A DNA stretch of 64,000 nt from an uncultured delta proteobacterium (GCA_963745835.1 CAVUZH010000003.1:1385185-1449184); one strand, 5' to 3'; shown: positions 20,338 to 44,025, counted from the first letter of the stretch. Numbers and translations: made by a program. The notes: a model not told the origin generated them from the sequence alone.

Positions 20338-21375
20338 TCACCGGATTACCTTATCTGCTCTTGCGAGAACCTCCGGCGGGATGATCACGCCGATCTGCTT
20401 CGCGGTCTTTAGATTAACGACGAGTTCGAACTTCGTCGGCTGCTCGACCGGCAGCTCGGCCGGTTTGGCACCCTTGAGTATTTTGTCAATCATCGCCGCG
20501 ACACGCTTGAAGGCTTCGGTCTCATCGGCCCCGTAGGACATCAACCCACCGTTGTCCACAAAGTCCTCGCGATAATAGATTGCCGGCAGACGATACTTTG
20601 CTGCCAGGTCGATGATCCGTTTTTGGATGGCGCTTGTTTGAGACAAGCGGTGCCGGGTTACTGAAAGAGCCGTGCTTCCCGCTTTGACCGCCTCTTTGAA
20701 GCCGCTCTCGTAGTTTTCGCTGCTGCCAATCTCCATTGAATGAATTTGCAGCCCAAGTTGCCGCGCAGCTCGCTGGCTTTCGGCCCACTGAGGCTCGCTA
20801 CTTCCAGAGCTTGGGTACCATAAGACAGCGACGCGCGAGAGTTTGGCTATGGATTCCTTGAGTGCTTCCACTCGTTTCCCTGCCAAGACATCCGCCAGGG
20901 AATAAAATCCCGTCGTGTTTCCTCCCGGCCGCGCCACACTGGCAACCAAGCCGCGTGCAACTGGATCGAAAGGAGTATCAGTAAAGACAATCGGGATTGT
21001 TTTTGTAGCCTTCTTGGCGGCCAGACCGTCATTTGGACCGCCCGCAACGATGACATCGACTTTAAGGCGCACCAGCTCATCCGCCAAACCAGGAAGCCGC
21101 TCGGGCTTCTCTTCCGCATAGCGGCGCTCGAAGACAATGTTCTTACCCTCTACGTAACCGAGTTCCCGCAGTTCCCGTCGTAGTGCCTCGATGCCGAATG
21201 TACTGGAAGATGATCCCCCGCTGAGTCTTCCTATACGATAAATTTTTCCCTCTTGCTGCGCGTTCGCATAAGGGCATAGCACAAAGAGCAAACCCATCAG
21301 TGCCAGACAATAAACTTCTCGCCTTTGTGATCTTTCGATCCAGAATCGACAATCCAAAATCGAAAATCGCTTCAC
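20338..21375 (-). CDS. ABC transporter substrate-binding protein (ABC_sub_bind-type), array member
   Basis: [54 protein letters not shown]...LARADKVI. Confidence 0.9.
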   Translation of the reverse strand: MKRFSILDCRFWIERSQRREVYCLALMGLLFVLCPYANAQQEGKIYRIGRLSGGSSSSTFGIEALRRELRELGYVEGKNIVFERRYAEEKPERLPGLADELVRLKVDVIVAGGPNDGLAAKKATKTIPIVFTDTPFDPVARGLVASVARPGGNTTGFYSLADVLAGKRVEALKESIAKLSRVAVLWYPSSGSSEPQWAESQRAARQLGLQIHSMEIGSSENYESGFKEAVKAGSTALSVTRHRLSQTSAIQKRIIDLAAKYRLPAIYYREDFVDNGGLMSYGADETEAFKRVAAMIDKILKGAKPAELPVEQPTKFELVVNLKTAKQIGVIIPPEVLARADKVIR

Positions 21376-22376
21376 TTGATCACCTTGTCCGCCCGCGCCA
21401 ATACGCTAGGCGGAATCATCAAACCAATCTGCTTCGCGGTTTTTAAGTTGATCACAAGCTCGAACTTCGTCGGCTGCTCCACGGGAATATCGGCGGGCTT
21501 CGCTCCTTTGAGAATTTTGTCGACGTAAGTGGCGGCGCGTCGATAGAGTTCAGGTACATTCACTCCGTAGGACATCAATCCACCGGAATTTACGAACGCA
21601 TCCGTCCAATAGATCGCAGGCGTTTTGGTTGCGATCGCCATTGAAACTAACTGCATCCGGTGACCAGCGAAAAACTGACTCGATATCAGGGTCATGGCGT
21701 CTAGGCGCTTTTTCATGAGAATCGTGGGCAGTTCTTGGACATCCTTAAGCTCGCGCGCGTTAAGAATTTCCACCTTCACCCTTCTGCCGTGCGTCACTCG
21801 CTCGACCTCCTTTAATTGCGGAGCGCTAATCGGATCAGACGGGTTAGTAAGCACCCCGATCAGCTTCGCCGAGGGGAAAGTTTCCATTAGAAGTTCTGTG
21901 CGCTTGCCGCTCAGCTCGACATTCATGTTGGTGAGGCCCGTCAGATTTCCGCCGGGATTGGCGAGGCTCGCCACCATTCCGGCACCTAGAGGATCAGCAA
22001 CTAAGGCAAAAACGATCGGCGTTGTCGGCATCGACTTCTTGGCAGCCAGTGCCGCGGGCGTAGAGGATGCTAGAACTACATCCGGTTTGAAGCGATCGAT
22101 CTCTTCGGCCAGCTCGGCAAGCCTGCCTGCGCGGCCCTCAGCGTTCCAGAGCTCGATTGTAGCGTTTTGGCCGGCGACGTAGCCGAGACGATTCAGCTCT
22201 TCGAAAAAAGACTCCATATTCGCGCGTTGTTGATCATAGGCGAAAACTGCTATGCGCAAGATTTTGCCTGGCGCCTGCGCCTGAGCGTAAGCACAAAGGG
22301 CAAAGAGCAGAGCGCTCAGGCAGGTAAGCGCAAAGAACAAAGCCCGAAGCCGAAAAGAAATAATGTCTCTGTTCAT
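21372..22376 (-). CDS. ABC_sub_bind-type substrate-binding protein
   Basis: Family motifs, intact ORF. Confidence 0.9.
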   Translation of the reverse strand: MNRDIISFRLRALFFALTCLSALLFALCAYAQAQAPGKILRIAVFAYDQQRANMESFFEELNRLGYVAGQNATIELWNAEGRAGRLAELAEEIDRFKPDVVLASSTPAALAAKKSMPTTPIVFALVADPLGAGMVASLANPGGNLTGLTNMNVELSGKRTELLMETFPSAKLIGVLTNPSDPISAPQLKEVERVTHGRRVKVEILNARELKDVQELPTILMKKRLDAMTLISSQFFAGHRMQLVSMAIATKTPAIYWTDAFVNSGGLMSYGVNVPELYRRAATYVDKILKGAKPADIPVEQPTKFELVINLKTAKQIGLMIPPSVLARADKVIK

Positions 22377-22418
22377 GATCCTTTTACTATGCTGTTGCCT
22401 AATGGCTATTACCTGCTG

Positions 22419-23432
22419 TTATCGAATCACCTTATCCGCTCTGGCCAACACATTCGGCGGAATCGCCAGGCCAACCTGCTTGGCGGCATTTAAGTTTATC
22501 GCCAGCTCAAACTTTGCCGGTTGTTCGACCGGTAAGTCGCCCGGCTTCGCGCCTTTTAAAATCTTGTCGACATAAATAGAGAGGCGCCTGAAAACCTCGA
22601 GATCATCGGTTGCATACGACATCACGCATCCGGCATCTACGTACTGCCGGGCCTCGCACATCGAAGGCAGTCGATTCTTTATGGCCAGATCTGAAATTTG
22701 CCTCATATGCGGCCCGAGCACGGCATGACTCACCGTAATTAGCGCCTGTACTTTTCTCTGAATCGCTTCTCGAATTGCGCCTGCCAAGTCAGGATTCGGA
22801 CGGGTCACCTGCAGCGATTGGAGCTGTATCTTCAACGCTTCGGCAGTAGGCTCGTAGCTTTGGAACGCGGTTCCTATACCTAGTGCAGTCGGGCGGACCC
22901 AAAGAACGCCGACGCGAGAAATCGATGGGATGATCTCCTTGAGTATCTCCAACCTCTTTCCACTCAGGTCGCGAGTGAGGCGCGCAATCCCGGTGACGTT
23001 TCCGCTCGGACGCGCTAGGTCGTCAACTAAACCGGTGGCGACCGGGTCCTGATTGGTCACCATAACAATCGGGACGTTCTTAGTGGCCTGCTTGGCAGCA
23101 CGGACTGAGGTTGGATCTACGGCTATGAGAATATCGACCTTCAGTTGCAGAAGTTCCTTAACCAGATCGGTAGGCTCGAATTTCCCATCGGAGTGGCGGG
23201 ACTCGATCACGATGTTTTTTCCTTCAACGTACCCGAGATCTCGCAACCCATCCTGCAGTGCTTTGAACTGCCGCGGTATGGGGGCGCCGGCGCTTGGCAG
23301 ATAACCAATCCTTGGAATTCTCTCCGGCTGCTGCGCTTCGCTAAACGAGCAAAGCGCAAACAGCATAGTGGCAAGAGTAAAACAAAAAACTTTCTTGTTC
23401 TTCGCAAAATCCAAAAACGAAAATTGAATCAC
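22419..23432 (-). CDS. ABC_sub_bind-type substrate-binding protein
   Basis: Family motifs, intact ORF, GTGA overlap with upstream gene. Confidence 0.9.
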   Translation of the reverse strand: MIQFSFLDFAKNKKVFCFTLATMLFALCSFSEAQQPERIPRIGYLPSAGAPIPRQFKALQDGLRDLGYVEGKNIVIESRHSDGKFEPTDLVKELLQLKVDILIAVDPTSVRAAKQATKNVPIVMVTNQDPVATGLVDDLARPSGNVTGIARLTRDLSGKRLEILKEIIPSISRVGVLWVRPTALGIGTAFQSYEPTAEALKIQLQSLQVTRPNPDLAGAIREAIQRKVQALITVSHAVLGPHMRQISDLAIKNRLPSMCEARQYVDAGCVMSYATDDLEVFRRLSIYVDKILKGAKPGDLPVEQPAKFELAINLNAAKQVGLAIPPNVLARADKVIR

Positions 23433-24421
23433 TTGATCACCTTGTCCGCTCTCGCCAGCACACGCTGCGGAATAGTCACGCCTATTTGCTTCGCAGTTTT
23501 AAGATTAATCGCCAATTCAAACTTGCTCGGCTGCTCTATGGGAAGGTCGGCAGGCAGGGCGCCTTTCAGAATCTTATCCACATAGACGGCTACACGACGG
23601 TAGCTGTCCGCGAGGTCTCCCCCGTAATATATCAGCCCGCCGGCCTCTACCGCTTCTCTGTTGTTGTAAATCGATGGCAACCGTCTTCTTATTGCGTAAC
23701 CGGCGATCCGTTCATAGTTACCAGAGATTCGCGTCCCGGAGAGTACATAAAGAGCATCCGTGCGCTCCTTGTTAGACGTACCGAATGCTCGCTCGAAACC
23801 GTCTGCGTCTGGTACCTCCCAAGGCTGAACAGTTAATTTCAGCACCCGTGCTGTCTCTGGGAGGATCTCTTTCACCTCGCGTACCTGGGACGTATTGGCC
23901 GGATCGTAGAGAACCGCGACACGGGCAATCTTCGGAACCACTTCTTTGAGTAGCTCCAGACGCTTACCGCCCAGTTCTCTGGCAAAGTTTGTAAGGCCGG
24001 TGACGTTCCCACCGGGTCGGGCAAGGCTTTTAACCAGCCCTGCCTCAACGGGATCGGACCCGCCCATCATAACGATGGGAATGGTATTGGTCGCATTCTT
24101 GAGCGCCCGCGCGGGATTGTTTCCTCCATCTACTATAACGATATCAACCTTCAGACGCACCAGCTCGGCCGCAAGCTCAGGAAACCGATCGCGCTTCCCC
24201 TCCGCGTACCGGTATTCGAACGCGATGTTCTGTCCTTCTATGTAGCCTAACTCGCGCAGCGCGAGCCGAATTCCCTCAGAATCGGCGGATTCACTATTGG
24301 GGGTGCCCGGCATTAAATATCCTACTCGGTGAACTTTCTTTGGCTGCTGCGCATCGGCAACATGGACACTGTTCATGGTAAAGACAATCACCAGAAGAAC
24401 AGTTGCGGAGTTCTTTTTCAC
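23429..24421 (-). CDS. ABC_sub_bind-type substrate-binding protein
   Basis: Family motifs; start overlaps the TGA of an orphan tail module. Confidence 0.9.
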   Translation of the reverse strand: MKKNSATVLLVIVFTMNSVHVADAQQPKKVHRVGYLMPGTPNSESADSEGIRLALRELGYIEGQNIAFEYRYAEGKRDRFPELAAELVRLKVDIVIVDGGNNPARALKNATNTIPIVMMGGSDPVEAGLVKSLARPGGNVTGLTNFARELGGKRLELLKEVVPKIARVAVLYDPANTSQVREVKEILPETARVLKLTVQPWEVPDADGFERAFGTSNKERTDALYVLSGTRISGNYERIAGYAIRRRLPSIYNNREAVEAGGLIYYGGDLADSYRRVAVYVDKILKGALPADLPIEQPSKFELAINLKTAKQIGVTIPQRVLARADKVIK

Positions 24422-24508
24422 TTGATCACCTTGTCCGCCCGCACCAGTACGTTCGGCGGAATCGCCGTACGACTTTAGATTTTGGATTTTCGATTTTGGA
24501 TTGTTCGA
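24418..24508 (-). repeat. Orphan SBP 3'-tail module (heptamer repeats + AIPPNVLVRADKVIK*)
   Basis: Near-identical to 42952-43043 and related to 26240-26377. Confidence 0.8.
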
Positions 24509-25561
24509 TCATCGGATTACCTTATCTGCTCTGGCTAATACAGCTGGTGGGATCGTCACGCCGATCTGTTTGGCAGTTTTTAAGTTGATCACGAGCTCGA
24601 ATTTAGTGGGCTGTTCGACCGGGAGATCGGCCGGCTTGGCGCCCTTGAGGATTTTGTCTATGTAAATAGCCGCCCGGCGTTGCAGATCGCCAAGGTTAAC
24701 ACCGTAGCTCATCAGGCCACCTGCGTTGACAAAGCCTTGTCTTACAAACACTGCCGGCAGCCGGCTTTTTGCGGCGTGATCTGCAACCGATTTCGGATCA
24801 ACGTTGAATATGGGGCCGCCGAGCACGAGGATCGCATCAGCTCGAGCGCTACGCGCGTCTCGAAACGCGCGGTCGACTTCTTTCGGATGGCGCACGTCTA
24901 CATACTGAAGTTGTACTCTGAGTGCGGCGGCGGCGCGTTCTGTCTCCTTAAGTCCTTCAGCATCGCCCGGATTGTTTGAAGAACCTAGGACTGCGACATG
25001 AGATAGGCCAGGAAGGATCTCCTTCAGAAGCTCCAGCCTTTTTCCGCTTACCTCGGGGCGGACTGTGGACAACCCAGTAATATTTCCGCCGGGTCGTGCT
25101 AGGCTTGCGATGAAGCTGCTGGCGACAGGATCGTTATCCTGGAGCATAACAATCGGAATCCTAGTCGTAGCCGCCTTGGCAGCGCGGGTTGCCGTTGAAC
25201 CGCCGCTTAGAATAACGTCGACCTTCATACGAACCAGCTCGGCAGCCATTAGAGATAGCTGATCCGGCTTCCCCTCCGCATGCCGGTACTCAAATGCGAT
25301 ATTCTGCCCTTCGATGTAGCCTAGCTCACGTAAACCTTCTTTAATCTGCGCAAGACCGCCACCTGTTAAGGAAACGGTACTCGCATACAGGAACCCCAAT
25401 TGTGGGATTTTTTCCGCTTGTTGCGCCTGAAGCGGAAGGCAAATCGTCAAGAGCAAACCGCTCAATAAAAGATAAAATACATTGTGCCGTCTTGTTCCAA
25501 TCCACAATCCAAAGCATGTCCTGAGCCATGCCGAAGGATCAAAAATCCAAAATGGGATCAT
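24509..25561 (-). CDS. ABC_sub_bind-type substrate-binding protein
   Basis: Family motifs, intact ORF; leader contains PSAWLRTC insertion. Confidence 0.9.
   Translation of the reverse strand: MIPFWIFDPSAWLRTCFGLWIGTRRHNVFYLLLSGLLLTICLPLQAQQAEKIPQLGFLYASTVSLTGGGLAQIKEGLRELGYIEGQNIAFEYRHAEGKPDQLSLMAAELVRMKVDVILSGGSTATRAAKAATTRIPIVMLQDNDPVASSFIASLARPGGNITGLSTVRPEVSGKRLELLKEILPGLSHVAVLGSSNNPGDAEGLKETERAAAALRVQLQYVDVRHPKEVDRAFRDARSARADAILVLGGPIFNVDPKSVADHAAKSRLPAVFVRQGFVNAGGLMSYGVNLGDLQRRAAIYIDKILKGAKPADLPVEQPTKFELVINLKTAKQIGVTIPPAVLARADKVIR
25515..25538. repeat. 24-nt REP-like element CATGTCCTGAGCCATGCCGAAGGA
   Basis: Also at ~30543-30564 and 31591-31614; longer variant at ~26314-26361. Confidence 0.7.
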
Positions 25562-25690
25562 TTGATCACCTTATCGGCCCGTGCCAAGACGCTAGGCGGA
25601 ATCATCAGATCAATTTGCTTGGCGGCTTTGAGATTGATCACCAGCTCAAATTAGTTGGCTGCTCGACCGGCAAGTCGGCAGGCTTGGACC
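25558..25690 (-). pseudogene. 3'-terminal fragment of an ABC_sub_bind gene
   Basis: [11 protein letters not shown]...[14 protein letters not shown] with no upstream coding part; hicBA lies immediately beyond. Confidence 0.75.
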
Positions 25691-25769
25691 GGATTACTCC
25701 CGTTCTCATTTCACCACAGCTTGTGATCACAGGAGCGGCTGATATAGCAATTGTAGCTCTGGAGGAATC

Positions 25770-26015
25770 ATGATGCGTTACTCGGTGCTTCTTGAACCCA
25801 TAAACGAACCAGAGTTTCAGGGCTACTACTACGCTCATATTCCGACTCTCGACCTGACCACCCATGGCATGGGAATCGAAGGCGCCCTTGGCGCTGCCCA
25901 ACAGTTGGTCGAGGCCTGGGTTGAAGAGAAAAGGTCACGTGGCGAAACCGTTCCTGTCGAAGCGAAATCCTTGATTGCACACGTCGAAATTCCGGATGCC
26001 GTACTCCGCCCGTGA
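25770..26015 (+). CDS. hicB: HicB-family antitoxin (short, no obvious DNA-binding domain)
   Basis: YSVLLEP...[20 protein letters not shown]...GETVP; SD GGAGG. Confidence 0.8.
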
Positions 26016-26202
26016 AGTCCTCGCAAAATTGATTCGCGCCGGCTTTATAGAAGTAAGACAGAGCGGTAGCCATAAAGTCCTGCGGCATCCAGATGGCCGA
26101 CAGACTTACGTAGCAATGCATCCAGGAACGCTGCCAACAGGAACCTTTCGCAAGATTCTTAAGCAAGCCGGCCTGACTGAAGAACAATTTCGGTCGTTGT
26201 GA
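25996..26202 (+). CDS. hicA: HicA-family mRNA interferase toxin
   Basis: [20 protein letters not shown]...[13 protein letters not shown]. Confidence 0.88.
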
Positions 26203-26239
26203 ATTATCCCATTGTAAGTAAATTTGGCTGTGCCTCTTC

Positions 26240-26377
26240 TCATCTGATCACCTTATCCGCTCGCGCCAACACATTCGGTGGAATCGCCATCCGATTTTAG
26301 ATTTTGGATTTTGGATCCTTCTACGGAGTTTATTCTGAGAGAGCCGAAGGGCTCAGGAAAGATTTTAGATTGTTCGA
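26240..26377 (-). repeat. Orphan SBP 3'-tail module with REP-like insertion
   Basis: Heptamer repeats + [15 protein letters not shown]; carries CCTTCTACGGAG...GGGCTCAGG insertion. Confidence 0.75.
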
Positions 26378-27457
26378 TCATCGGATCACCTTGTCCGCTC
26401 TTGCGAGCACGTTCGGCGGGATCGTGAGACCGATCTGCTTCGCGGCGTTAAGATTGATCACCAGCTCGAACTTCGTCGGCTGTTCCACCGGGAGTCGGCA
26501 GGCTTTGCGCCTTTCAGAATCTTATCGACATACGTGGCAGCGCGGCGGTATAAGTCAGGCGATGTTCGCCCCGTAATACATAAGGCCACCCGTGTCTGTC
26601 CACTGGACGTTTGGGTATATGGCTGGCATACGCGTCTGTTCCACCAGCTCCAAAATCGTTTTTCGGTGAGGAGTTAAACCAAGGTTACCTAAACCGGTAA
26701 TGAGACCGCCAACACGCTCCTTAACCATGAGGCGGAATGCGCCCTCAAGATCCGGATTGGGAGTTTTTACCTCTACAAGTTGAAGCCTGACTCCTAAGGC
26801 CTGGGCCGTTACCTCCGCAGCCTGGAATCCGGCTCTATTCGGCGAACTGAGCGGTTCATTAAGGAAGACAAAGCGCGCGATCTTCGGCACCGCCTCTTTC
26901 AAGAGTTCCAGTCGCTTTCCAAGCACCTCCGGGGTGAGGTTTGTCAAACCCGTGACGTTTCCCCCCGGACGGGCCAGACTGGCGACGAGGCCGGTCTCAA
27001 CAGGGTCAGCACCGCTTGCCATAATAATCGGAATCGTAGTGGTTACCTTCTTGGCGTGACTGGCCGCCGAGTATGACTCCGCAACAATGATTTCAACCGG
27101 GAGTCGAACGAGTTCCTCAGCCAATGCGGGCAGTCGTTCGAGTCTACCGTCAGCGTACCTGTATTCGATGGTGATGTTTTTCCCCTCGATGTAGCCCAAT
27201 TCCCGCAAACCTCGATGGAAAGCCTCAAGGTTCCGCGGCGCAGGTGCACGGGAATCTGACGGATGAAGATCGCGCGACAGAAAGCCTATCCTGAAAGTAT
27301 TTTTCGGCTGCTGCGCCATCGCGGACGGACATTGCGCGAAAAGCATCGCGCTAACCGTTAAACAAAAGGCGCTCAATGGGGCTACGTACCAAAGAATACC
27401 ACTGATCGTGGAAGGATCACTTTGCGTTTCACGCGGCTTGCCTTTCGCCTTCTTCAC
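26378..27457 (-). pseudogene. ABC_sub_bind-type protein, frameshifted near 3' end
   Basis: ORF stops at 26555; [16 protein letters not shown]...ADKVIR continues in other frames. Confidence 0.8.
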
Positions 27458-28497
27458 TTGATCACCTTGTCCGCCCGCGCCAACACGTTGGGCGGGACAA
27501 TCAGACCGATTTGCTTTGCCGTTTTAAGATTGATCACCAGCTCAAACTTCGTCGGCTGTTCGATGGGCAGATTGGCGGGCTTCGTGCCCTTTAAAATCTT
27601 ATCTACATAAACGGCGGCGCGCCGGAAACTCTCCGCATCGTTAGCCGCATACGATACGAGACCACCGCTTTCTACAAAATCCGCTCCCGCTGACATTAAA
27701 GGTAGCCGGTGCTTTATGGCAAGATCCGCAATTTGGGCTCGATAGTTTACGAGCAGCGAAGTCCTAACTGCAATAATCGCGTTCGCGCGCCGTTTGGCCA
27801 CTGTTTGAAAAGTATCCTTGAGATTAGAGCTCGCACCGCGTACTTCCAAGGATTCAAGCGCAATTTTCAGTGCATTGGCCGCGTTTTGATAATTCTCCAC
27901 CGGTGAAGCCGTATCCGCTTCCCAAAGAAGTCCGACTCGAGAGATACCAGGGACTACCTCCTTCAGCAGCTCAAGCCGTTTTTCACTTAGATCTCGGGTG
28001 AGCCGAGTGAGCCCAGTAATATTTCCACCCGGTCGGGCCAAGCTATCGACCAGCCCAGTTCTCACTGGATCTTCCGTAATTGCCATGACAATGGGAATTG
28101 TCCTGGTCGCTCGCTTGGCCTCGCGGACAACTCGGAAAGTCGGCGAAACAAGGACATCAATATTGCGCTGGACAAGTTCGGCCACGACGCTAGGGATATT
28201 GTCGTCCTTCCATTCTGCGTGGCGATAATCAATGACGATGTTTTTTCCGTCGATGTACCCGAGATTTTGCATCGCGTGACGGAAAGCTGCAAAATTCGGC
28301 GAGGAGGTGGAAGGCTCGCCACCTCCTGTAACATATCCAATCCGTACGTCTTTTGACTGCTGCGCCTCAACGGAAACATCGGTAGGCAGAAAGAAAGCAA
28401 GCAGCAAGCAGTTAAAGACAAATCTTATCGTCTGTGTTAGAAGTTTCGCTACGCTTGTCTTACTGTCAGCTGCTCTCTGCTCACGACCCGTTGTCAT
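27454..28497 (-). CDS. ABC_sub_bind-type substrate-binding protein
   Basis: Family motifs, intact ORF. Confidence 0.9.
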   Translation of the reverse strand: MTTGREQRAADSKTSVAKLLTQTIRFVFNCLLLAFFLPTDVSVEAQQSKDVRIGYVTGGGEPSTSSPNFAAFRHAMQNLGYIDGKNIVIDYRHAEWKDDNIPSVVAELVQRNIDVLVSPTFRVVREAKRATRTIPIVMAITEDPVRTGLVDSLARPGGNITGLTRLTRDLSEKRLELLKEVVPGISRVGLLWEADTASPVENYQNAANALKIALESLEVRGASSNLKDTFQTVAKRRANAIIAVRTSLLVNYRAQIADLAIKHRLPLMSAGADFVESGGLVSYAANDAESFRRAAVYVDKILKGTKPANLPIEQPTKFELVINLKTAKQIGLIVPPNVLARADKVIK

Positions 28498-34662: not shown

Positions 34663-34743
34663 GGCGGAAAGAGCAAAACGAAAACTCGCTTTCTGCTCTT
34701 AGTTCTCCTAATCCAAATCCAAAATCGAAAATCCAAAATGGGA

Positions 34744-36844: not shown

Positions 36845-37870
36845 TTGATCACCTTGTCCGCTCGTGCCAGCAAGTTCGGCGGAATCGTAAGGCTGATCTG
36901 CTTGGCGGCTTTGAGATTGACCACTAGTTCAACGTCGCCGGCTGCTCTACTGGTAGATCAGCCGGCTTCGCTCCTTTGAGGATTTTGTCGACATAGGTTG
37001 CAGCGCGGCGTTGTAAATCGGCAAGACTAACCCCATAGCTCATCAGCCCGCCTGCATTCACAAAATTTTCCCTGACATAGACCACTGGCAGCCGGCTTTT
37101 TGCTGTGCTGCAAGTTCTTTTGGCTTGACGTTGAATATCGGACCTCCTAACACAAGAACTGCCTCCGCCCGCTCCGCGCGCGCTTCTCGAAACGCTGCCT
37201 CAATATCTTTCACACCATGCACGTCCAGATATTGAATCTGCAGTTTGAGTGCGCCGGCAGCGAGTTGTGTCTCCTTGAGTCCTTCGGCGTTGCCGGGGTT
37301 GTTCGATGAGCCGAGGACCGCTACTCGGGAGAGCCCGGGGACGATTTCTTTCAAAAGTTCCAGCCGCTTTCCGCTTATTTCTGGTCGTAGCGTCGATAAG
37401 CCGGTAATGTTTCCGCCCGGCCGTGCTAGGCTGGCGATAAACCCGCTTCTGACAGGATCGTTATCCTGGAGCATGACAATCGGGATGGTGCTGGTGGCCT
37501 CCTTGGCAGCACGAGTCGCCGTAGAGCCGGCCGTAAGAATAACGTCAACTTTTAGCCGGACCAGCTCATCAGCGAAGGTAGCTAAACGATCTAAGTTTCC
37601 GCCCGCCTGTCGCCACTCGATGACGATGTTCTTTCCTTCCACATAGTCTAATTCGGCCAAACCTTCTTTGACCGCCGCAGGTCTGCCGCTTTCTCCCGGC
37701 CCGGTACTTGCCGCGAGAAAGCCCACTTTAGGGATTCTTGCGGATTGCTGAGCCTGCGCGATCGTGCAAACACCAAAGAGCAGAAGTGCAAAACAGCAAA
37801 GCGCGAAGAGCATAAAACGACGCAGAGTGTTCTTGCCGACTTTTGATCTCTGACATTGGATCTGTGTCAC
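36841..37870 (-). pseudogene. ABC_sub_bind-type protein, frameshifted at ~37100 and ~36930
   Basis: ORF 37058-37870; remaining C-terminal motifs in other frames; close paralog of 24509-25561. Confidence 0.8.
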
Positions 37871-38862
37871 CTGATCACCCTGTCGGCTCTTGCCAGTACG
37901 TTCGGTGGAATTATCACGCCAATCTGTTTTGCTGTTTTCAGATTGATCACTAGCTCGAACTTCGTCGGCTGCTCCACCGGTAGCTCGGCAGGCTTTGCGC
38001 CTTTGAGAATTTTATCTACGAAAACTGCAGCACGGGCAGCAAGGACTCGATCGTCCGGCGAATAGGAGATTAGGCTGCCTTCCTCTACATACAGATTGGT
38101 CTCGCCCATTGAAGGGAGCTTGTTCTTGATGGCCAGTTCGGCAATTCGCTTTGTGTAAGGATCGAGCACGATATTCGAAAGAGAGATGAGCGCATCAACA
38201 CGCTCCTTGGTCGCAGCCCGAAACGCGCCGTCGAGATCCGGGATGGGTCCTCGTACCGGCAAGGATGCAAGCTTTATCTTCAAAGACGGGGCTGCAGCCT
38301 CGTACCGCTTAAAACCCACAGCGAACCCAGCATCCGACCCGTCCGCATTCCAGAGAAGGCCCACGCGCGACACCGCCGAAATCACTTCTTTGAGCAGTTC
38401 TAAACGTTTTTCGCTCAAGTCTCGGGTCATTCTCGTCAATCCAGTGATATTCCCACCGGGTCGCGCAAGACTATCCACATATCCCGCGGCAACAGGATCC
38501 TGAGTTGTCACCATCACAATGGGAACTGTCTTCGTGGCCTGCTTGAGCGCTCGCATGACTGGGGGAGTTCCAGAGATTATTACATCGACCTTTAGCTGTA
38601 TTAGCTCAGACACAACACTCGGAATCCGCGCGCGGTCGCCATGAAGATAGCGGTACTCGACGAGAATGTTTTTCCCCTCGGTGTATCCAAGATCGTGCAG
38701 GCTCTGCCGAAATGCCTCAATGCGAGAGCCGGGATTCTTCGGATCACCGATAGACACATACCCTAACAGCGGAACTCTCTGCGGCTGTTGTGCCGCGGCG
38801 GAAAACGTGAGCGACAACAGCACTGCAGCCAAGCCGAACTGAATGACTCTGCTCGGTCTCAC
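37867..38862 (-). CDS. ABC_sub_bind-type substrate-binding protein
   Basis: Family motifs, intact ORF. Confidence 0.9.
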   Translation of the reverse strand: MRPSRVIQFGLAAVLLSLTFSAAAQQPQRVPLLGYVSIGDPKNPGSRIEAFRQSLHDLGYTEGKNILVEYRYLHGDRARIPSVVSELIQLKVDVIISGTPPVMRALKQATKTVPIVMVTTQDPVAAGYVDSLARPGGNITGLTRMTRDLSEKRLELLKEVISAVSRVGLLWNADGSDAGFAVGFKRYEAAAPSLKIKLASLPVRGPIPDLDGAFRAATKERVDALISLSNIVLDPYTKRIAELAIKNKLPSMGETNLYVEEGSLISYSPDDRVLAARAAVFVDKILKGAKPAELPVEQPTKFELVINLKTAKQIGVIIPPNVLARADRVIR

Positions 38863-39825
38863 TTGATTACCCGATCGGCTCTGGCTAATACATGTGGTGG
38901 GATCGTCAGGCCGATCTGTTTCGCAGTCTTCAGATTGATCGCCAACTCGAACTTACTCGCCTGCTCGACCGGCAGGTCGGCCGGGTTTGCGCCTTTCAGA
39001 ATCTTATCGACATAAAACGCAGCGCGCCGGTAAATTTCGTCTCGATGAGCATCATAGGATGCGAGGCCGCCATCTTCGACAACTGTCACGCTCTCCGACA
39101 TCAACGGCAGTCGATGTTGTAGCGCAAGATCGGCGATTTGCTTTCGGTGAACTGAGAGCGAAGGAACACTAGTTGTGATGATTGCGCTGACCCGCTCCTT
39201 TACGGCAACTTGGAAAAGCTTAGGCAAGTCGGCAGTTGGCGCTTGCACTTCGAGGATTTGAAGCGGCACCTTGAGACTCCGCGCCGCATCCTCATAATCT
39301 TTAAATGCCCCAAAGCCCGAAAGAATTCCGACCCGCGAGAGCCGCGGAATCATCGCGGTCAGTAGTTCCAGCCGTTTGCCGCTCAGGTCTCGGGTAGCTG
39401 ACGTAAACCCGGTGATATTTCCTCCCGGATGCGCCAGACTATTAACCAGACCAGATGCTACCGGATCCGGAGTAATCGCCATGACAATGGGAATCGTTTT
39501 GGTCGCCTGCTTGGCTTCGCGGATGACGATCGCCTGTGTGGAGAAAATGAATATCGACCTTGAGGCGCACGAGTTCGGCGACAATTCCCGGGACGCGAGA
39601 CCTATCTCCCTCGTTGTTGCGATATTCAAACAAAATATTTTTCCCCTCAAAGTAACCGAGCTCTTGCAGCTCTTGCCGGAATATTTTGATTCTCGAACTA
39701 GGGTCGGTGGCAATGCCTGTGACGATTCCTATGCGCGGGATTTTCGTAACCTGCTGCGCCTGAACTGTGGAGCACGTGGCAAAAAACAGAGAGCATAGAG
39801 TAAGCGAAATAGTTTTTTTAGTCAT
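38859..39825 (-). pseudogene. ABC_sub_bind-type protein, single frameshift at ~39550
   Basis: Split ORFs 39442-39825 and 38859-39713 join at LKVDI/IFSTQ. Confidence 0.82.
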
Positions 39826-39872
39826 ACTCGGCTTCCTGTTTCCGATCTCGGACGTCTGACTTCTGGTCCCTG

Positions 39873-40913
39873 TTATCTAATCACCCTATCCGCCCTTGCC
39901 AGGATATGCGGCGAAATGGTAGCGCCGATCTGTTTTGCAGTCTTTAAATTGATCACCATTTCGAATTTGGTTGGCTGCTCGACCGGAATGTCGGCTGGTT
40001 TGGAGCCTTTCAAGATCCTGGCCAGGTAGCGCGCGCCATCAAAACCTTCAATGCTGTAGCCCGGTCCATAAGCCATGAGATTGCCGTTATCAGCGTAATC
40101 TGCTCGCGCACATATCGATACCCAGCGGTAACGCATCGCCAGATCGGCGATCCTCTTCTGATTCGAGTTGGCTAACGGGTTTAACGTCACGGCAAGAGCG
40201 CCGCTGTGCGCCTTGGCTGCTTCTTTGAACGCCTCCTCATACTTATCGGCGCTGCTTACCTGCATTGAATGTAGCTGCAGGCCAAGCTCTCGTGCCGGCA
40301 CTTGGCTGTCTTGCCACTGCGGCGCGGAGCCGGGAGCTTGAGGGTCCCATAGCACGGCAACACGGGAGAGCTTCGGAACGATTTCCTTTAGCAGCTCCAG
40401 TCGTTTGCCTGCTAAAATGGCCGCCATGTTGGTGATCCCCGTGCTATTCCCTCCGGGTCGCGGCAGGCTATCGACCAGTCCCGCGGTAACAGGATCAGTC
40501 ACGCCCATGAAAACGTGCGGAATAGTCTTGCTAACACTGCGAGCGGCTTGAGCGGCATTGGTCGTGACGGTTACAAAAACGTCAGTCTTAAGCCGGACAA
40601 GTTCGGCTGCAAGCTCCGGAAGGCGGTCAAAGTTCCGGTCCTCATGGCGATACTCGATAAAAATGTTCTGCCCCTCGATATAGCCGAAATCCCGTAGCGC
40701 CTGCCGGAATGCCTCTTTGCGCGGGGCATCAGCGGCCGGTGATACCGCGGCCAGATAACCGATGCGCGGAACTTTTTTCGGTTGCTGCGCCTCGGCTTCC
40801 GTCCAGCACAGCACGAATATGACAACTAGGGCGAGCATCCCTGCCAATTTTGGATTTTGGATTGCCGATTTTCGATTGTCGGAAACAGACTCCGAAGGAA
40901 CCGCGTTCATCAC
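39873..40913 (-). CDS. ABC_sub_bind-type substrate-binding protein
   Basis: Family motifs, intact ORF. Confidence 0.9.
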   Translation of the reverse strand: MMNAVPSESVSDNRKSAIQNPKLAGMLALVVIFVLCWTEAEAQQPKKVPRIGYLAAVSPAADAPRKEAFRQALRDFGYIEGQNIFIEYRHEDRNFDRLPELAAELVRLKTDVFVTVTTNAAQAARSVSKTIPHVFMGVTDPVTAGLVDSLPRPGGNSTGITNMAAILAGKRLELLKEIVPKLSRVAVLWDPQAPGSAPQWQDSQVPARELGLQLHSMQVSSADKYEEAFKEAAKAHSGALAVTLNPLANSNQKRIADLAMRYRWVSICARADYADNGNLMAYGPGYSIEGFDGARYLARILKGSKPADIPVEQPTKFEMVINLKTAKQIGATISPHILARADRVIR

Positions 40914-40965
40914 TTTGTTCTCCTGCTTTCAACCCAAAAGTCTAAATTCGAAATCCAGAATCGGA

Positions 40966-41010
40966 TTACTTGATTACTCTATCGGCTCTTGCCAGCAGGT
41001 TGGCTGCAAC
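40966..41010 (-). repeat. Orphan SBP tail ([14 protein letters not shown])
   Basis: 45-nt tail directly downstream of the S1/P1 nuclease, followed by heptamer repeats. Confidence 0.7.
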
Positions 41011-41066
41011 GTCGACGTTTGCTTCGCAATCCTTCGCGCTCCAGCAATAGCTTTGCCGTAGCCACA

Positions 41067-41840
41067 TTACTTGAAAATATTATTCAGCAACCACTCCAGC
41101 CTCATTCCCGCCTGAGCCAGCCGTCGTCTGACTATCATGAGAGCGGTTGCCACGTATTCGTCTGACAATTCCATGGATTCTCCAACGGTATAGGCATCGG
41201 ACCTCGATAAACGAAATGATTCGTCAGTCCACGTTTTCGGCTCGCCAGACTGCCATTCAGAGCGTTGCTTCGGTGTAATGCTCTGGTCCAATTTCTTGGC
41301 TAGTTCCTCGGCGTTGCCTTCTTCCATGTCGACGACGTTGAAATCCCAGAACAGATGGAGGTTCTTCGTCTGTCCTCTATAACTCACGGTAATTTCGGTT
41401 CCACCTCTATCTTCTCGCCTACCTGCATGTAGAGGCTGATGCATATCATTTACTAGATGGGCCACGTACCGGAGAGCAATCAGTCGCACATTGATCGGCA
41501 CCTTAACGTCAGCGATAATCGAGGTAAACCAATTTAAAGCCTCAACCATGCAATTTCTTGCTTTACAGTCTCGTTCTTGATCGTAGCCGGCGGCATCATC
41601 GGGAATGCTGACGTGATGCAGCCGATCGAACTCTGTTATTCGCCTACCTTCCCTGTCAGGCCACACAGCTGCATCGGCCAGTGTCGTGCCATCAGGAAGA
41701 AGCTTCCTCACCTCTTCTCGTGCCTGCTCCGTGAGCTGCGTATCGGCTAAGATAGCTACAATTCGATGGCCCTTGTCGCCCCAGCCGTAGGCTACGTCGC
41801 GCAATGGAAGCATGAACGCGAATGCAGCAGTAGCCGACAA
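41067..41840 (-). CDS. S1/P1 nuclease family protein (probably secreted; start uncertain)
   Basis: WGDKGH, AAVWPD, HLVNDMHQPLH, NLHLFWD, LAQAGMRL motifs. Confidence 0.9.
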   Translation of the reverse strand: MSATAAFAFMLPLRDVAYGWGDKGHRIVAILADTQLTEQAREEVRKLLPDGTTLADAAVWPDREGRRITEFDRLHHVSIPDDAAGYDQERDCKARNCMVEALNWFTSIIADVKVPINVRLIALRYVAHLVNDMHQPLHAGRREDRGGTEITVSYRGQTKNLHLFWDFNVVDMEEGNAEELAKKLDQSITPKQRSEWQSGEPKTWTDESFRLSRSDAYTVGESMELSDEYVATALMIVRRRLAQAGMRLEWLLNNIFK

Positions 41841-41931
41841 GGATCAGCTTGTAGATAAACAGCTCACCTTGGGCGGAGAATCGCCGTACGACTTTCAGTA
41901 GATTTTGCGATTTTTGATTTTGGATGGCAGA

Positions 41932-42899
41932 TCATCGGATTACTTTATCTGCTCTCGCCAGCACATTCGGCGGTATCGTCACGCCGATCTGCTTTGCCGT
42001 CTTTAAGTTGATCACTATCTCGAACTTCGTCGGTTGTTCCACTGGCATTTCGCTCGGTTTAGCGCCTCTTAGAATCTTGTCTACGTAGACAGCAGCGCGT
42101 CTAAAGAGCGCCGGATCATCAGCTGAATACGAGATGAGCCCTCCCGCCTCTACGCGAGCGGCCACTTCATGCATAGTCGGCAGTCGGTTTTTGATGGCAA
42201 ATTGTAGGATCTGCTTCGTGAAAGGGTTCAGTGTGCGACTTGCAACCGGCATAAGCCCGTTCACTCGTGCTCTCACAGCAGCTCGAAATGCGCCCTCCAG
42301 ATCGGGTTTAGAACCGTTTACCTCGATGGATTCGAGCGAAATCTTCAGCAAGCGTGCCGCAGTCTAATAGTCTCGGAAACTCGATGACCCGCGGACCGCA
42401 ATGATTCCTAAATGTGACAGGCTCGGAACCGCCTCCTTGAAAATTCCAGTCGTTTTCCACTTAACTCATGGGTAAGTCTGGCGAGTCCCGTGATATTTCC
42501 GCCTGGGCGTGCGAAACTATCGATTATGCCTTTCTCCACCGGATCAAAAGAAGCCACCATAACTATGGGGATCGTTTTCGTTGCTTTCTTGGCTTCAACG
42601 ATTGCTCCTGCACTCGAACTAACCAGCACATCGACATTAAGTTTTATGAGTTCCTCGACGAAGCCCGAGACTCGATCCGGATTTGTCCCGGGATAGCGAT
42701 ATTCAACGTGGATGTTTTCTCCTTCGATGTAGCCTAAATCTCGGAGCCCGCGCCGGAAGGACTCGACGAACACGCCGGGATTATTGATGCTGCCACTGCT
42801 CGCCGCATATCCAACTCGTGGTATTCTCGCTTGCTGCTCGGCGTTGAGAAGAGAAACATTGGTCAGAAAAAGGAACCAGAAAACAATCTTGCTAATCAT
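41932..42899 (-). pseudogene. ABC_sub_bind-type protein, frameshifted at ~42350-42440
   Basis: Split ORFs 42408-42899 and 41932-42351. Confidence 0.8.
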
Positions 42900-42951
42900 T
42901 GCTTCCGTTCCATTTAAGCTGGTCAGTACTTACCATTACGCTGCTCGACCA

Positions 42952-43043
42952 TTATTTGATCACCTTATCCGCACGTCGCCAGCACATTCGGCGGAATCGC
43001 CGTACGATTTTAGATTTTGGATTTTCGATTTTGGATTGTTCGA
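42952..43043 (-). repeat. Orphan SBP 3'-tail module
   Basis: Near-identical to 24418-24508. Confidence 0.8.
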
Positions 43044-44025
43044 TCATCGGATTACTTTGTCAGCTCTACCCAAAACATTGGGCGGAATGGCTACGCCGAT
43101 CTGCTTGGCCGCTTTCAGATTAATCAGTAGTTCGAATCTCATGGGAAGTTCCACGGGTAAGTCTGCAGGCTTGGCTCCTTTAATAATCTTGTCGACATAA
43201 ATTCCCGCACGACGGTAGAGGTCGCCGTAATTAACCCCATAGCCCATCAGCCCGCCGTCTTCGATAAACTGCCCCGTTTGATACATCGCCGGCAACCGAA
43301 GATTTGGTGGCGAGATCGACGATTCGTTTTGAATTCAACGTCATCAGCGCGCCCCCCGGTATAACTAGAGCGTCCGGCTGAAGTTGCTTTAAGACGTTCG
43401 CGGCGCCCTCGATATCTCCTGTGCTTCTGACCTCGTGAGGCCGGAGCTGTAGCCCAAGAGCCTTGGCGCCCTTTTTTGCTCCGTCGAGAACCTGCGCTGC
43501 AAGCTGGCCAGCTTCGGGATTCCACAGCATCGCGACCATGGTGATTTTCGGGAACGCCTCCTTGAGCAGATCCAAACGCTTACCCATCATTTCAGGGCCA
43601 GCGCTGCTTGATAGTCCGGTAACGTTTCCGCCTGGGTATGCCAGGCTCTTGACCAAGCCGGTGGCAACAGGATCAAATCCGATGCCTACGATAGGCGTTC
43701 GGCTATTTGCCTGAAGAACAGCGCGAGTGGCGGCAGGCGTAGTTGTAAGAATAACATCAAGATTGAGCGCGACGAGTTCCGTCGCAAGCATCGCCAGTCT
43801 GTCCGAACTCCGCTCGGCATAGCGGTACTCGATAGAAATGTTCTTGCCGTCAACGTAGCCTAAATCTCGCAATCCCTGGTGAAATGATTCCAGATGAGGT
43901 TGATCCCTCGACCCGAAGAACAGAAATCCCAAGCGAGGAATCTTCGCCGGATGCTGCGCCTGGGCCACCTCCCCCCAGGCCGTCAATGTCAGAACGACTG
44001 CAAGGAGGCCGACAATGTGTTTCAT
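43044..44025 (-). pseudogene. First ABC_sub_bind-type gene of array, frameshift at ~43300
   Basis: Split ORFs 43231-44025 and 43044-43295; SD TAGGAGG. Confidence 0.82.

Follow-up and report, generated by a model that had tools for sequence, protein, structure and literature searches.

Organization and probable birth-and-death evolution of a tandem array of orphan PF04392 substrate-binding protein genes in an uncultured delta proteobacterium

Results

Organization of the array

The window, i.e. the whole stretch of 64,000 nucleotides analysed here from contig C3 of an uncultured delta proteobacterium genome (G000), carries on its minus strand, between positions 20338 and 44025, 21 co-oriented units of the PF04392 (ABC_sub_bind) family, of which 13 are intact and the other 8 disrupted by frameshifts, stop codons or deletions (Table 1). 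A first-pass annotation of this DNA had described 21 co-oriented paralogous genes; number and orientation are borne out by the HMM map, whereas intact genes are restricted to the 13 units. Each unit codes for a signal peptide of Sec type, followed by a ligand-binding body, which is divergent, and a tail at the C-terminus. All five substrate-binding protein (SBP)-like ORFs tested passed the PF04392 cut-off of 25.9 bits (59.7–172 bits). Specifically, full-length ORFs scored 143.8–172 bits over profile positions 13–20 to 292–293, and the two half-ORFs of unit 20 reached 59.7 and 61 bits. The array units match this family instead of TctC (PF03401). A TctC-like five-gene array is also found inside the window, at 562–6049.

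Table 1. Features of the array. Units were mapped with an HMM built from 12 intact copies against the six-frame translation, which placed 21 units between 20341 and 44013.
Feature	Position	Strand	Basis
Whole array, 21 PF04392 units and two passenger modules	20338–44025	-	HMM map, Pfam
Units 1–5, all intact	20341–21330, 21375–22331, 22422–23405, 23432–24421, 24512–25495	-	Single-frame HMM matches, columns 2–9 to 329
Unit 6, broken (three frames)	26381–27370	-	HMM map
Units 7–9, intact	27457–28419, 28497–29495, 29543–30508	-	HMM map
Unit 10, broken (frame shifted at ~30631 and ~30801)	30585–31568	-	HMM map
Unit 11, intact	31637–32617	-	HMM map
Unit 12, N-terminus heavily decayed (several frames and stops)	32662–33533	-	HMM map
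Units 13 and 14, intact	33715–34692, 34747–35718	-	HMM map
Units 15 and 16, both broken	35751–36739, 36844–37798	-	HMM map
Unit 17, intact	37870–38862	-	HMM map
Unit 18, broken	38862–39822	-	HMM map
Unit 19, intact	39876–40859	-	HMM map
Units 20 and 21, both broken, single-base indel in each relative to intact G004 orthologues	41935–42884, 43047–44013	-	HMM map, congener comparison
Gene-less tail pieces (five, the last degenerate)	24421–24465, 25561–25688, 26243–26290, ~42957–43003, ~41850–41900		
Gene-less tail relic, one frameshift; stop overlaps unit 5 ATG	25561–25688	-	HMM columns 287–329
Passenger 1: 81-aa ORF in HicB position and HicA toxin ORF	25770–26015, 25975–26202	+ (opposite to array)	PF07927
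Passenger 2: S1/P1 nuclease with signal peptide	41067–41840	-	PF02265, 195.1 bits, profile positions 1–258 of 258
Junction module after unit 5: tail end, ~40-nt spacer (AAAATCN)n, mini-tail 24421–24465; stop overlaps unit 4 GTG	24419–24563	-	129.7 bits
Unit 6 broken tail, heptamer spacer with small hairpin insertion, mini-tail 26243–26290 with in-frame ATG	26243–26506	-	
Junction module after unit 21: tail end, spacer of heptamers, mini-tail with frameshift	42954–43098	-	124.2 bits
Hybrid tail end of unit 20, degenerate heptamer spacer, truncated mini-tail abutting nuclease	41843–41980	-	Tail alignment
Unit 15 leader: inverted tracts (GATTTTN)n ... (AAAATCN)n, long-stem hairpin enclosing start region	36715–36845	-	-41 kcal/mol, z -5.16, 0/200 shuffles as stable
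Reverse heptamer tract directly after stop, read as N-terminal extension	21300–21372	-	Sequence
Like heptamer tracts after stops	23432, 25561, 30585, 31637, 32662, 34747, 36844		

The many ATGA/GTGA stop–start overlaps noted at first pass were confirmed: one of the two motifs forms the terminus of 21 of 24 tail ends (21 units and three separately detected tail pieces), and eight ORF pairs in a mechanical ORF list overlap by 4 nt. Tails without a gene, proposed at five or six places, were found at five, and such pieces border both unrelated passengers, a hicBA-like module and an S1/P1 nuclease, as had been claimed. In the former, the HicA toxin ORF scored 65.7 bits on PF07927, and the overlapping upstream 81-aa ORF had no Pfam or NCBIfam match. 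Several tails that ORF calling made appear detached belong to broken units, whose ends are frameshifted.

Family relationships and transporter context

The closest structures in the PDB are 3LKV (E 4.6e-34), 3LFT (5.8e-31) and 6HNI (5.4e-24). The ligands known for PF04392 are L-Trp, L-Tyr and L-Phe (PMC10443332). The array units have the Pfam family and the C-terminal motif in common with the TrpX-type aromatic amino-acid binding proteins (3LFT, 3LKV, 6HNI; NF041285), but they are massively multiplied and do not lie beside a permease or ATPase; the two array units scored on the TrpX equivalog NF041285 reached 151.7 and 146.1 bits, far below its cut-off of 390 bits. In agreement with the earlier claim that the array lacks transporter partners, neither BPD_transp_2 nor ABC_tran matched anywhere in the window, nor at the other three arrays of the genome (see below), the nearest match being ~90 kb from the window. 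A canonical ABC importer operon, with permease and ATPase adjoining the SBP gene, was thus found at none of the four arrays. The sole cognate-type locus is an operon at C23:2439-7445, in which genes for a permease and an ATPase accompany those for a STAS protein and a fused double PF04392 protein.

Expansion in the genome and in the lineage

The four arrays lie on C3 (the window), C19 (45 kb, 28 intact units), C22 (21 kb, 12 intact) and C24. The genome total amounts to 114 units (62 intact, 24 full-length but broken, 28 fragments), so that ~86 full-length units in 7.3 Mb stand against one cognate-type permease/ATPase locus. PF04392 was present in all 24 genomes of the same family, many with at least 43 matches (a tally including the unpublished G012 and G018), and in none of 11 genomes of a sister family. 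In addition, co-oriented arrays of at least three full units were found at 33 of the 80 loci examined, in several phyla, with a maximum of 14 units in 21 kb. The features of an orphan-SBP lineage-specific expansion, namely many paralogues, few membrane partners and lineage-restricted spread, are all found here. The host is described as a soil-type bacterium in which a single gene for a periplasmic binding protein is present about a hundred times.

Paralogy among the units is old and dispersed, with saturated synonymous sites in the body. The best body identity per unit ranges from 0.44 to 0.78, and the best match of 20 units lies in another array or locus for 13, at a non-adjacent position in the window for 6 and next door for only 1. 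The units at 24512 and 36844 form the closest pair inside the window (69% aa identity over the body), as reported at first pass. Neighbours are therefore rarely closest relatives; local tandem duplication nevertheless occurs too, since the adjacent trio 31637/30631/29543 is 62–66% identical.

Conservation of the tail

Among the 62 intact copies of the genome, the tail is 72% identical at the nucleotide and 76% at the amino acid level, compared to 51% and 41% in the body. The statement that the tail is conserved at the DNA level thus holds weakly: tails of paralogues are ~73% identical and share no invariant core. The longest exact match between two tails has a median of 11 nt, equal to that of the body, and reaches 20 nt or more in 5% of the pairs. 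Tail identity was 0.739 between adjacent units and 0.729 and 0.715 otherwise; adjacency has no effect on tail similarity, and there is therefore no sign of ongoing homogenisation of ordinary tails. At synonymous sites, the ratio of observed to expected conservation was somewhat higher in the tail (1.37) than in the body (1.16), a constraint that is only mild. It persists in comparison with equally conserved body columns (1.32–1.43 versus 1.12–1.25), a difference that the reading preferred below leaves unexplained. Codons are random at fully conserved body sites and only mildly biased in the tail. A Shine–Dalgarno-like GGTGAT was not enriched where the downstream unit is coupled (77/155, versus 24/52 and 49/108).

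The tail was aligned with high posterior probability in 3LKV and 3LFT (Vibrio and Streptococcus structures), its peptide patterns occur at no fewer than 577 confirmed loci in many phyla, and the motif is also present in single-copy transporter SBPs of other phyla. Because nucleotide identity tracks amino acid identity, and because the tail aligns in distant structures and recurs across phyla, we conclude that its conservation is that of an ancestral protein motif of the family, older than the arrays.

Turnover of units between congeners

Congeneric genomes (G001, G004 and G005) share with G000 the flanks and some orthologous units, and differ from it by indels and replacements of whole units. 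The congeners are represented by short contigs only, and for this reason the indels are read as differences, with no direction assigned. In G004, unit 20 and the nuclease are separated by two additional units relative to G000, and the orthologues of units 20 and 21 are intact; G005 lacks unit 20, and unit 18 is followed there by a unit similar to unit 10. G000, G004 and G001 have left flank and trailer in common, with adjoining unit bodies that are non-orthologous (at most 63% aa identity). In one case, the breakpoint lies in the tail itself: the final 24 nt of unit 20 of G000 match the neighbouring unit of G004 at 23 of 24 positions and their own orthologue at 16 of 24, whereas the blocks upstream match the orthologue at 19–24 of 24. 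Units are therefore gained, lost and replaced between congeneric genomes, with boundaries at or in the tail. The gain, loss and shuffling of units suggested at first pass is in line with these data, gene order being unstable across congeners.

Junction modules and heptamer leaders

Some unit borders carry a junction module of ~145 nt, composed of an AT-rich tail end, a heptamer spacer and a mini-tail. Clear heptamer tracts were found in 16 of 94 leaders of G000 and in 18 of 243 leaders of its relatives; the one variant by which the leader frame would acquire a stop is avoided. Stable folds were predicted for leaders with inverted tracts in four genomes (z -2.9 to -5.2). Often the tracts are translated and make up the n-region of the signal peptide. 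The short tandemly repeated heptamers (STRR) of heterocystous cyanobacteria are likewise heptanucleotide tandem tracts, which lie in both orientations in intergenic DNA and where genes start; their sequence differs from the one found here (AAAATCN), which is tied to one gene family across phyla.

Discussion

All together, the data make it likely that the locus belongs to a set of four tandem, operon-like arrays of orphan PF04392 SBP genes, which evolve by birth-and-death via unequal homologous recombination at the tails. The data establish the family, the copy numbers, the broken copies, the absence of transporter and recombinase genes, the protein-level origin of the conservation of the tail, the turnover of units and one in-tail breakpoint. 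The encoded proteins would probably constitute a receptor repertoire for small ligands of presumably varied nature. By analogy with the proposal made for the Bug/TTT proteins, all of them might be served by one shared permease/ATPase, that of the C23 operon, or by signalling partners, and the units may be co-transcribed and translationally coupled. Birth-and-death would comprise old duplications and decay into pseudogenes, together with the deletion, duplication and replacement of whole units, with units changing by unequal homologous recombination or gene conversion, presumably through a RecA-type mechanism. Crossovers would fall in tail or junction sequences because these are the only stretches alike enough between paralogues, and the gene-less tails would be left behind by deletions of this kind. 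Long exact matches between tails are so few that classical homologous recombination would be inefficient for most pairs, and microhomology-mediated events are an alternative to it.

Comparable expansions have been reported for the Bug/TTT (TctC) proteins in Bordetella, Cupriavidus and Rhodoplanes sp. Z2-YC6860, and read as lineage-specific expansion for sensing or uptake (PMC5994714). In Rhodoplanes, 434 TTT SBP genes include arrays of up to nine, whose members are less than 50% identical within the array; in the nine-member array, the closest match of five members lies elsewhere, and relative to membrane components the genes are orphans (PMC5994714). Both families thus show tens to hundreds of orphan SBP paralogues with very few membrane partners, and in both the identity between members of a tandem array does not exceed ~50% and the closest relative of a member is often found outside. 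The present units differ in being type I ABC binding proteins of PF04392 and not TctC, in forming longer arrays (21 and roughly 40 units versus a reported maximum of nine), and in their many stop–start overlaps, large broken share, heptamer leaders and conserved junction module. On our best reading, the PF04392 array is for its family what the Bug/TTT expansions are for theirs, namely a large new case of a gene-family expansion of known kind and not a new cassette machine; the idea that the system is undescribed does not hold against the pattern published for TTT/Bug proteins (PMC5994714).

The synonymous excess in the tail and the lack of higher tail similarity between neighbours count against this explanation, and so does the junction module, which is conserved across phyla far beyond the expectation for neutral relics. 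Module and heptamer leaders might instead be a functional or self-propagating boundary element defining exchangeable units (mini-tail, gene, tail end, spacer), a view that we regard as unlikely. The module would copy itself to any paralogue by gene conversion, since both its flanks are homologous to any tail, and the repertoire would be shuffled in a cassette-like manner with no dedicated recombinase, which we likewise judge improbable. It may also act in expression, through a translated mini-ORF ending at the stop–start overlap, RNA processing or hairpin control. Around 20 strong copies were found, in G000 (C3, C19), in three congeners and at loci labelled Binatia and Deltaproteobacteria, and the left junction occurs 1–4 times per genome in five other genomes, where a control pattern gave 0; the copy number is nonetheless low. 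The non-coding spacer and mini-tail of G000 are 81–84% identical to other-phylum copies; their identity reaches 90% at two paralogous sites within G000, but only 77–78% with the orthologous copies of G004 and G005. In the body tree, the units with a module are dispersed (mean patristic distance 1.82, versus 1.76 in random sets), and the module is present at the G001 orthologue of unit 9 and missing from unit 9 of G000. Two modules flank the indel of unit 20 between G000 and G005, and toxin–antitoxin passengers directly follow a module in G000 (hicBA-like) and G001 (PIN with Phd/YefM), but most passenger-bearing array gaps, judged from coordinates with no formal count, lack one. As for expression, the stop-avoiding tracts and stable leader folds fit such a role, as does the in-frame ATG mini-ORF spanning the mini-tail in 7 of 16 copies; the other 9 have no such ATG, several copies are frameshifted or truncated, the heptamer tracts are confined to few leaders, no pairs of a conserved RNA structure were predicted in the module, and it had no match in viral contigs or Rfam. 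Moreover, the module could be what an internal deletion left of a unit, with a coupled ATG and heptamer leader fused to the last ~16–19 codons.

Integrons combine an IntI integrase with attI and attC sites and co-oriented arrays of mostly promoterless single-gene cassettes, unrelated to one another, and toxin–antitoxin passengers occur inside large chromosomal ones. Co-oriented, mostly promoterless single-gene units, content varying between relatives and toxin–antitoxin passengers are found in the PF04392 arrays as well, and the first-pass annotation had proposed an integron-like system, with the gene tail as attachment site and units leaving and entering the array as circles. Unit indels and replacements at tail boundaries, closest paralogues that are rarely neighbours and the mild constraint on synonymous tail sites all favour this proposal, which we nevertheless hold to be very unlikely. 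Searches of the window and of the C19, C22 and C24 arrays revealed no tyrosine or serine recombinase: of 13 PF00589 matches in the genome, none falls in the window (C3:1385185-1449184), the nearest on C3 is ~120 kb off, and the tyrosine recombinases closest to any unit lie ~3–5 kb from a small two-unit locus on C14. The variable DNA of the tails offers no fixed core, the tail motif predates the arrays, and the paralogues diverged anciently. An attC after every unit is absent: at least eight junctions are 4-nt stop–start overlaps without intergenic DNA, and at the many junctions devoid of spacer nothing attC-like lies between the units. Unlike integron cassettes, the units all belong to one family, and their shared 'site' is a coding protein motif. 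An integron-like, site-specific mechanism is not supported, no recombinase lying at the four large arrays.

That metagenome assembly (chimeric joins, a collapsed repeat) produced the array or most of what is odd about it is the least probable reading and extremely unlikely: contamination is estimated at 9.3%, the window terminates at a contig end and a flanking gene contains single-base frameshifts, but in independent contigs of G004, G005 and G001 the flanks, the nuclease, the junction modules and the succession of several units recur at 81–95% identity, metagenome contigs of four studies run along the stretch, some with 0–1 differences, rpoB/rpoC-sized genes are uninterrupted, and many other assemblies contain similar arrays. 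Assembly errors may nevertheless explain some of the 'broken' units. None of the three runs covering position 39550 has the extra base found there, and the flanking 737-aa frame, split in three in G000, is intact in G004.

The array and its gene family

The window (C3:1385185-1449184) lies at a contig end of a 7.28-Mb genome in 25 contigs. By mapping a profile of 12 intact copies against the six-frame translation, we located 21 co-oriented minus-strand units (single copies of the binding-protein gene) of one family, from 20341 to 44013. An uninterrupted frame spans essentially the whole profile in thirteen of them; in the other eight, the frame is disrupted by frameshifts, stop codons or an internal lesion. 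The first-pass annotation, which reported 21 co-oriented paralogues and several copies of their conserved 3' tail detached from any gene, was mostly right, except that some of these "detached" tails are the frameshifted ends of broken units.

All five substrate-binding-protein-like ORFs tested passed PF04392 (ABC_sub_bind). Among NCBIfam models, the tryptophan-binding TrpX equivalog comes closest, but the scores against it (146-152 bits) are well under the cut-off of 390, so that the units are relatives of TrpX and not TrpX itself. Their solved relatives are 3LKV, 3LFT and 6HNI; the ligands on record for the family are L-Trp, L-Tyr and L-Phe (PMC10443332). Every intact unit has a signal-peptide-like start ending in A-x-A-Q-Q.

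Neither an ABC ATPase nor a BPD_transp_2 permease was found within the window. The array is flanked by Tad-pilus and receiver-domain genes on one side and by DsbA-like and ankyrin-repeat genes on the other, and it houses two passenger modules (see the table). A stand-alone response-regulator receiver gene (19053-19469, minus strand) lies just past the last unit. In addition, five TctC/Bug-like (PF03401) genes stand in tandem at 562-6049 on the plus strand (32.7-55.2 bits), and therefore a second orphan binding-protein family is multiplied in the neighbourhood; a sixth, weaker gene past the array (46618-47697, plus strand) scored 19.4 bits, under the cut-off.

Coordinates and extent of the principal features (window positions unless a contig or locus is named)
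Feature	Position	Strand	Remark
Unit 6	26381-27370	-	broken; profile mapping
Unit 10	30585-31568	-	broken; profile mapping
Unit 12	32662-33533	-	broken; profile mapping
Unit 15	35751-36739	-	broken; profile mapping
Unit 16	36844-37798	-	broken; profile mapping
Unit 18	38862-39822	-	broken; profile mapping
Unit 20	41935-42884	-	broken; profile mapping
Unit 21	43047-44013	-	broken; profile mapping
Tail relic	25561-25688		43 codons; beside hicBA-like module
Passenger 1	25770-26202	opposite to units	HicA toxin ORF and overlapping upstream 81-aa ORF
Passenger 2	41067-41840		secreted S1/P1 nuclease
Hairpin-like inserts, window	~25505-25545, 30535-30570, 31585-31620, 26320-26365
Hairpin-like inserts, relatives	L080, L047, L011, L063, L001:2192-2348
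C3 array	contig C3		23.7 kb; window array
C19 array	contig C19		45 kb; 28 intact units
C22 array	contig C22		21 kb; 12 intact units
C24 array	contig C24		11 kb; mostly broken units

Spread of PF04392 arrays in the genome and beyond

The 180 profile matches in the source genome were grouped into 114 units (62 intact, 24 full-length broken and 28 fragments), most of them in four co-oriented arrays, all devoid of ABC ATPase and BPD_transp_2 permease genes. The only PF04392 gene beside a single permease and ATPase is at C23:2439-7445 (L089), where a gene for a 661-aa double-PF04392 protein is followed by those for a 412-aa STAS-domain protein, the permease and the ATPase.

Within the same taxonomic family, PF04392 matches occurred in all 24 genomes, a tally that takes in the unpublished G012 and G018, and many genomes had at least 43; none was found in 11 genomes of a sister family of the same order. 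Scanning species-representative genomes with two tail peptides returned at least 582 stretches, at least 577 of them confirmed. The titles of the best 80 of these loci include Syntrophobacter-like/Deltaproteobacteria, Candidatus Binatia, Rokuibacteriota, Pyrinomonadaceae, Udaeobacter, Betaproteobacteria and Nitrospirota. Of these 80, 33 hold at least three full units in the same orientation, with a maximum of 14 in 21 kb; long PF04392 arrays are thus common in uncultured soil and groundwater bacteria.

Orphan binding-protein expansions are already known in the TTT/Bug (TctC) family, of which the PF04392 arrays are the counterpart in another protein family, at 2-4 times the length of the published TTT maximum. 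In the portions of the PF04392 and COG2984 literature covered, no such expansion was found described. All together, these data point to a widespread, unstudied strategy of sensing or scavenging many related small molecules via one transporter. With a copy number of about 100 here, and recurrence across several phyla, the arrays represent a natural system for the birth-and-death evolution of bacterial receptor repertoires.

Relationships among units and reality of the broken copies

In the body, the divergent ligand-binding part of the protein, the best identity of window units to any other unit of the genome is 0.44-0.78, and the array paralogues are, to judge from their divergence, old. The best match of 20 window units lies in another array or locus in 13 cases, at a non-adjacent position of the window in six and next door in one. 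The distant pair 24512/36844, singled out as close-looking in the first-pass annotation, is indeed 69% identical, and the units at 31637, 30631 and 29543 form a local trio (62-66% identity). The same pattern of relationships has been published for a nine-gene TTT array of Rhodoplanes (PMC5994714). Segmental duplication of whole arrays appears unlikely, as the best matches of C3 units in C22 are not collinear when read by eye.

Unit 12 carries multiple lesions, and units 20 and 21 have one single-base indel each compared to their intact orthologues in the congener G004. In Logan contigs of metagenome runs, X5 and X7 carry the extra base near 43302-43305 and X1 and X6 lack it; at 39550, none of the three covering runs has the extra base. 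On the array flank, a 737-aa frame of G004 (L007:943-3153) corresponds to three abutting frames of 258, 298 and 262 codons (48376-50702, minus strand), with single-base insertions at 49079 and 49938. This split frame, either a pseudogene or an assembly error, bears on the true number of broken units; elsewhere in the genome, genes as long as 1,373-1,381 codons show no interruption, and 49 frames are longer than 1,000 codons. Some of the single-base breaks may therefore stem from misassembly, so that at most eight units are truly broken.

Conservation of the tail

When the 62 intact copies are compared in all 1,891 pairs, identity in the tail (last 44 codons) is 76% for amino acids and 72% for nucleotides, compared to 41% and 51% in the body. 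The tail motif aligns with high confidence in the otherwise distant relatives 3LKV of Vibrio and 3LFT of Streptococcus, and it predates the arrays.

Conservation at the DNA level was assayed as the frequency of the same codon at shared amino acids, relative to the expectation from the codon usage of the family. In the 62 copies, same-codon use was 0.368 against 0.318 expected in the body (ratio 1.16) and 0.467 against 0.340 in the tail (1.37), rising to 1.56 in the last 14 codons; the 13 intact window copies gave 1.15 and 1.34 for body and tail, respectively. When matched for amino-acid conservation, the tail ratio (1.32-1.43) still exceeded that of the body (1.12-1.25), in which invariant residues such as P115, G142 and T141 show random codon choice. 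A nucleotide-level signal is therefore real but modest. Tail pairs have a median identity of 73% and a median longest exact match of 11 nt, the latter equal to that of the body, and only 5% share an exact match of at least 20 nt; the signal is far short of a conserved site.

Homogenisation of ordinary tails by gene conversion was rejected, tail identity being nearly equal whatever the adjacency (0.739 for adjacent, 0.729 for same-array and 0.715 for different-array pairs). A role of the tail end as Shine-Dalgarno sequence or ribosome-binding site for the next gene is not supported either, since GGTGAT is not enriched in the last seven codons before coupled downstream units (77/155, versus 24/52 and 49/108 otherwise). 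A diversity-generating retroelement, with the tail as variable repeat and its short second copy as template, was dropped because the differences between the two copies, read by eye, are not adenine-specific and because no other part of the protein varies less than the tail.

In the source genome and relatives, 234 of 315 tails stop with TGA and 230 of the 315 end in ATGA or GTGA, an ending that TGA tails owe to a last residue of K or R. Of the 24 tail ends in the window, 21 show this ending, and for eight pairs of ORFs the overlap is where the longest form of the downstream ORF begins. Co-transcription and translational coupling of the units are plausible.

Unit turnover at the tails

The orthologous locus was recovered on short contigs of three same-genus genomes, G001, G004 and G005. 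G004 retains the right flank, the nuclease and the orthologues of units 21 and 20, both intact, at 95-96% amino-acid identity. Between unit 20 and the nuclease, it carries two extra units whose best match in the source genome reaches just 59-61%. The final 24 nt of our unit 20 agree at 23 positions with the tail of the adjoining extra unit of G004 and at 16 with its own G004 orthologue, to which eleven blocks further upstream are identical at 19-24 of 24 positions. These matches mark a recombination breakpoint within the tail of unit 20.

In G005, the tail of unit 21, a junction module (described below), the nuclease and units 19 and 18 are present, and unit 20 is missing; after unit 18, a unit 79% similar to unit 10 stands in place of unit 17. 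At the other array end, the flank and a trailer of about 120 nt, up to the stop codon, are common to G000 (the source genome), G004 and G001. The adjoining unit bodies of G004 and G001 are not orthologous, with at most 63% identity to any G000 unit and less than 60% to each other; the three tails at this trailer are too similar to position breakpoints. Gene order is therefore unstable, and the genomes differ at unit boundaries, as the first-pass annotation had predicted in proposing unit-level turnover at the tails.

The same annotation likened the units to integron cassettes without attC, with the tail as a recombination or insertion site. Searches for tyrosine and serine recombinases found none within the window and none at the C19, C22 and C24 arrays. 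The evidence points to homology-based recombination within a motif constrained at the protein level rather than to a site-specific system of integron type. Circles and structural variants were sought in Logan contigs, mostly short, of soil and rhizosphere metagenomes. Most contigs matched at no more than 90-95% identity on tails, and the joints had short sides of 20-52 nt and one contig each, many from paralogues or other organisms. In conclusion, the array is a large and old expansion of orphan PF04392 binding proteins in which units are actively turning over.

The junction module

Five tails are truly gene-less. One is the tail relic listed in the table; the other four are parts of the junction module, a composite some 145 nt long that recurs and consists of a tail end in AT-rich codons, a stop, a spacer of about 40 nt made of AAAATCN heptamers, and a second copy of the last codons. 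This mini-tail comprises the last 16-19 codons, in ordinary codons and with its own stop. A nucleotide profile detected about 20 strong copies in the source genome and relatives: two in the window array, together with two degenerate ones, five in C19, and the remainder in G001, G004, G005 and loci titled Binatia and Deltaproteobacteria. Five other genomes have the left junction of the module, at 1-4 copies each, and a reversed control pattern gave no match.

Spacer and mini-tail are 90% identical between the two window copies and 81-84% to other-phylum copies, but only 77-78% to the orthologous copies of G004 and G005. Module-bearing units are dispersed over the body tree, and the module is present in the G001 orthologue of unit 9 and absent from unit 9 itself. 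In 7 of 16 copies, an in-frame ATG opens a mini-ORF over the mini-tail.

A phage or mobile-element origin was set aside after one exact-pattern scan gave no match in viral contigs. The heptamer spacer is not a regular 3' trailer of arrays, as among the 18 units listed without a following unit only that at the C3 end has it. RNAalifold predicted no conserved pairs in 14 copies, and Rfam returned no match on 19000-46000 at E values up to 1.

The module is best read, we infer, as what is left of a unit after an internal deletion, whereby the coupled start and heptamer leader of that unit would have been fused to its last codons. It could then be copied to other units, or lost again, through ordinary recombination, since both flanks are homologous to any tail; gene conversion of modules is possible. 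The remnant reading leaves the cross-phylum conservation of the module unaccounted for.

In the G001 array, a junction module is immediately followed by opposite-strand genes for a PIN toxin and a Phd/YefM antitoxin (L003:1186-1868), a placement that mirrors the hicBA-like module of the window.

Heptamer leaders of the units

Tracts of at least three AAAATCN heptamers occur at 22 places in the source genome, of which 16 are no more than 300 nt away from a unit, and none in the reversed-sequence control; in relatives, 29 matches fall in 18 of the best 80 loci. Clear tracts are a minority, present in 16 of 94 leaders of the source genome and 18 of 243 of relatives. Three contexts were distinguished: forward in the N-terminal coding region, where the tract supplies the signal peptide with its charged n-region; reversed, immediately past the preceding stop; and forward within the junction module. 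Read by eye, tracts in the coding context avoid the sole heptamer variant giving a stop codon.

When both orientations surround the start codon, a long RNA hairpin is predicted, in four genomes (-40 to -45 kcal/mol, z -2.9 to -5.2), and none of 200 shuffles was equally stable. Together with the junction module, these hairpin leaders are small, testable candidates for coupling gene turnover with expression.

Some heptamer tracts are interrupted by a small GC-rich hairpin-like element, about 20-25 nt long, which is found in either orientation and recurs at the same type of site in several genomes and phyla. Two tracts, C13:364838 and C13:368091, apparently lie within an open frame of 1,709 codons (C13:364322-369448), which would mean that the repeat also occurs outside the binding-protein family. 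Unit leaders generally seem to be built of short tandem repeats; other GC-rich short repeats, of roughly 7-nt period, come after mini-tails and stops in L042, L050, L071, L082 and at about 389490 of contig C24.
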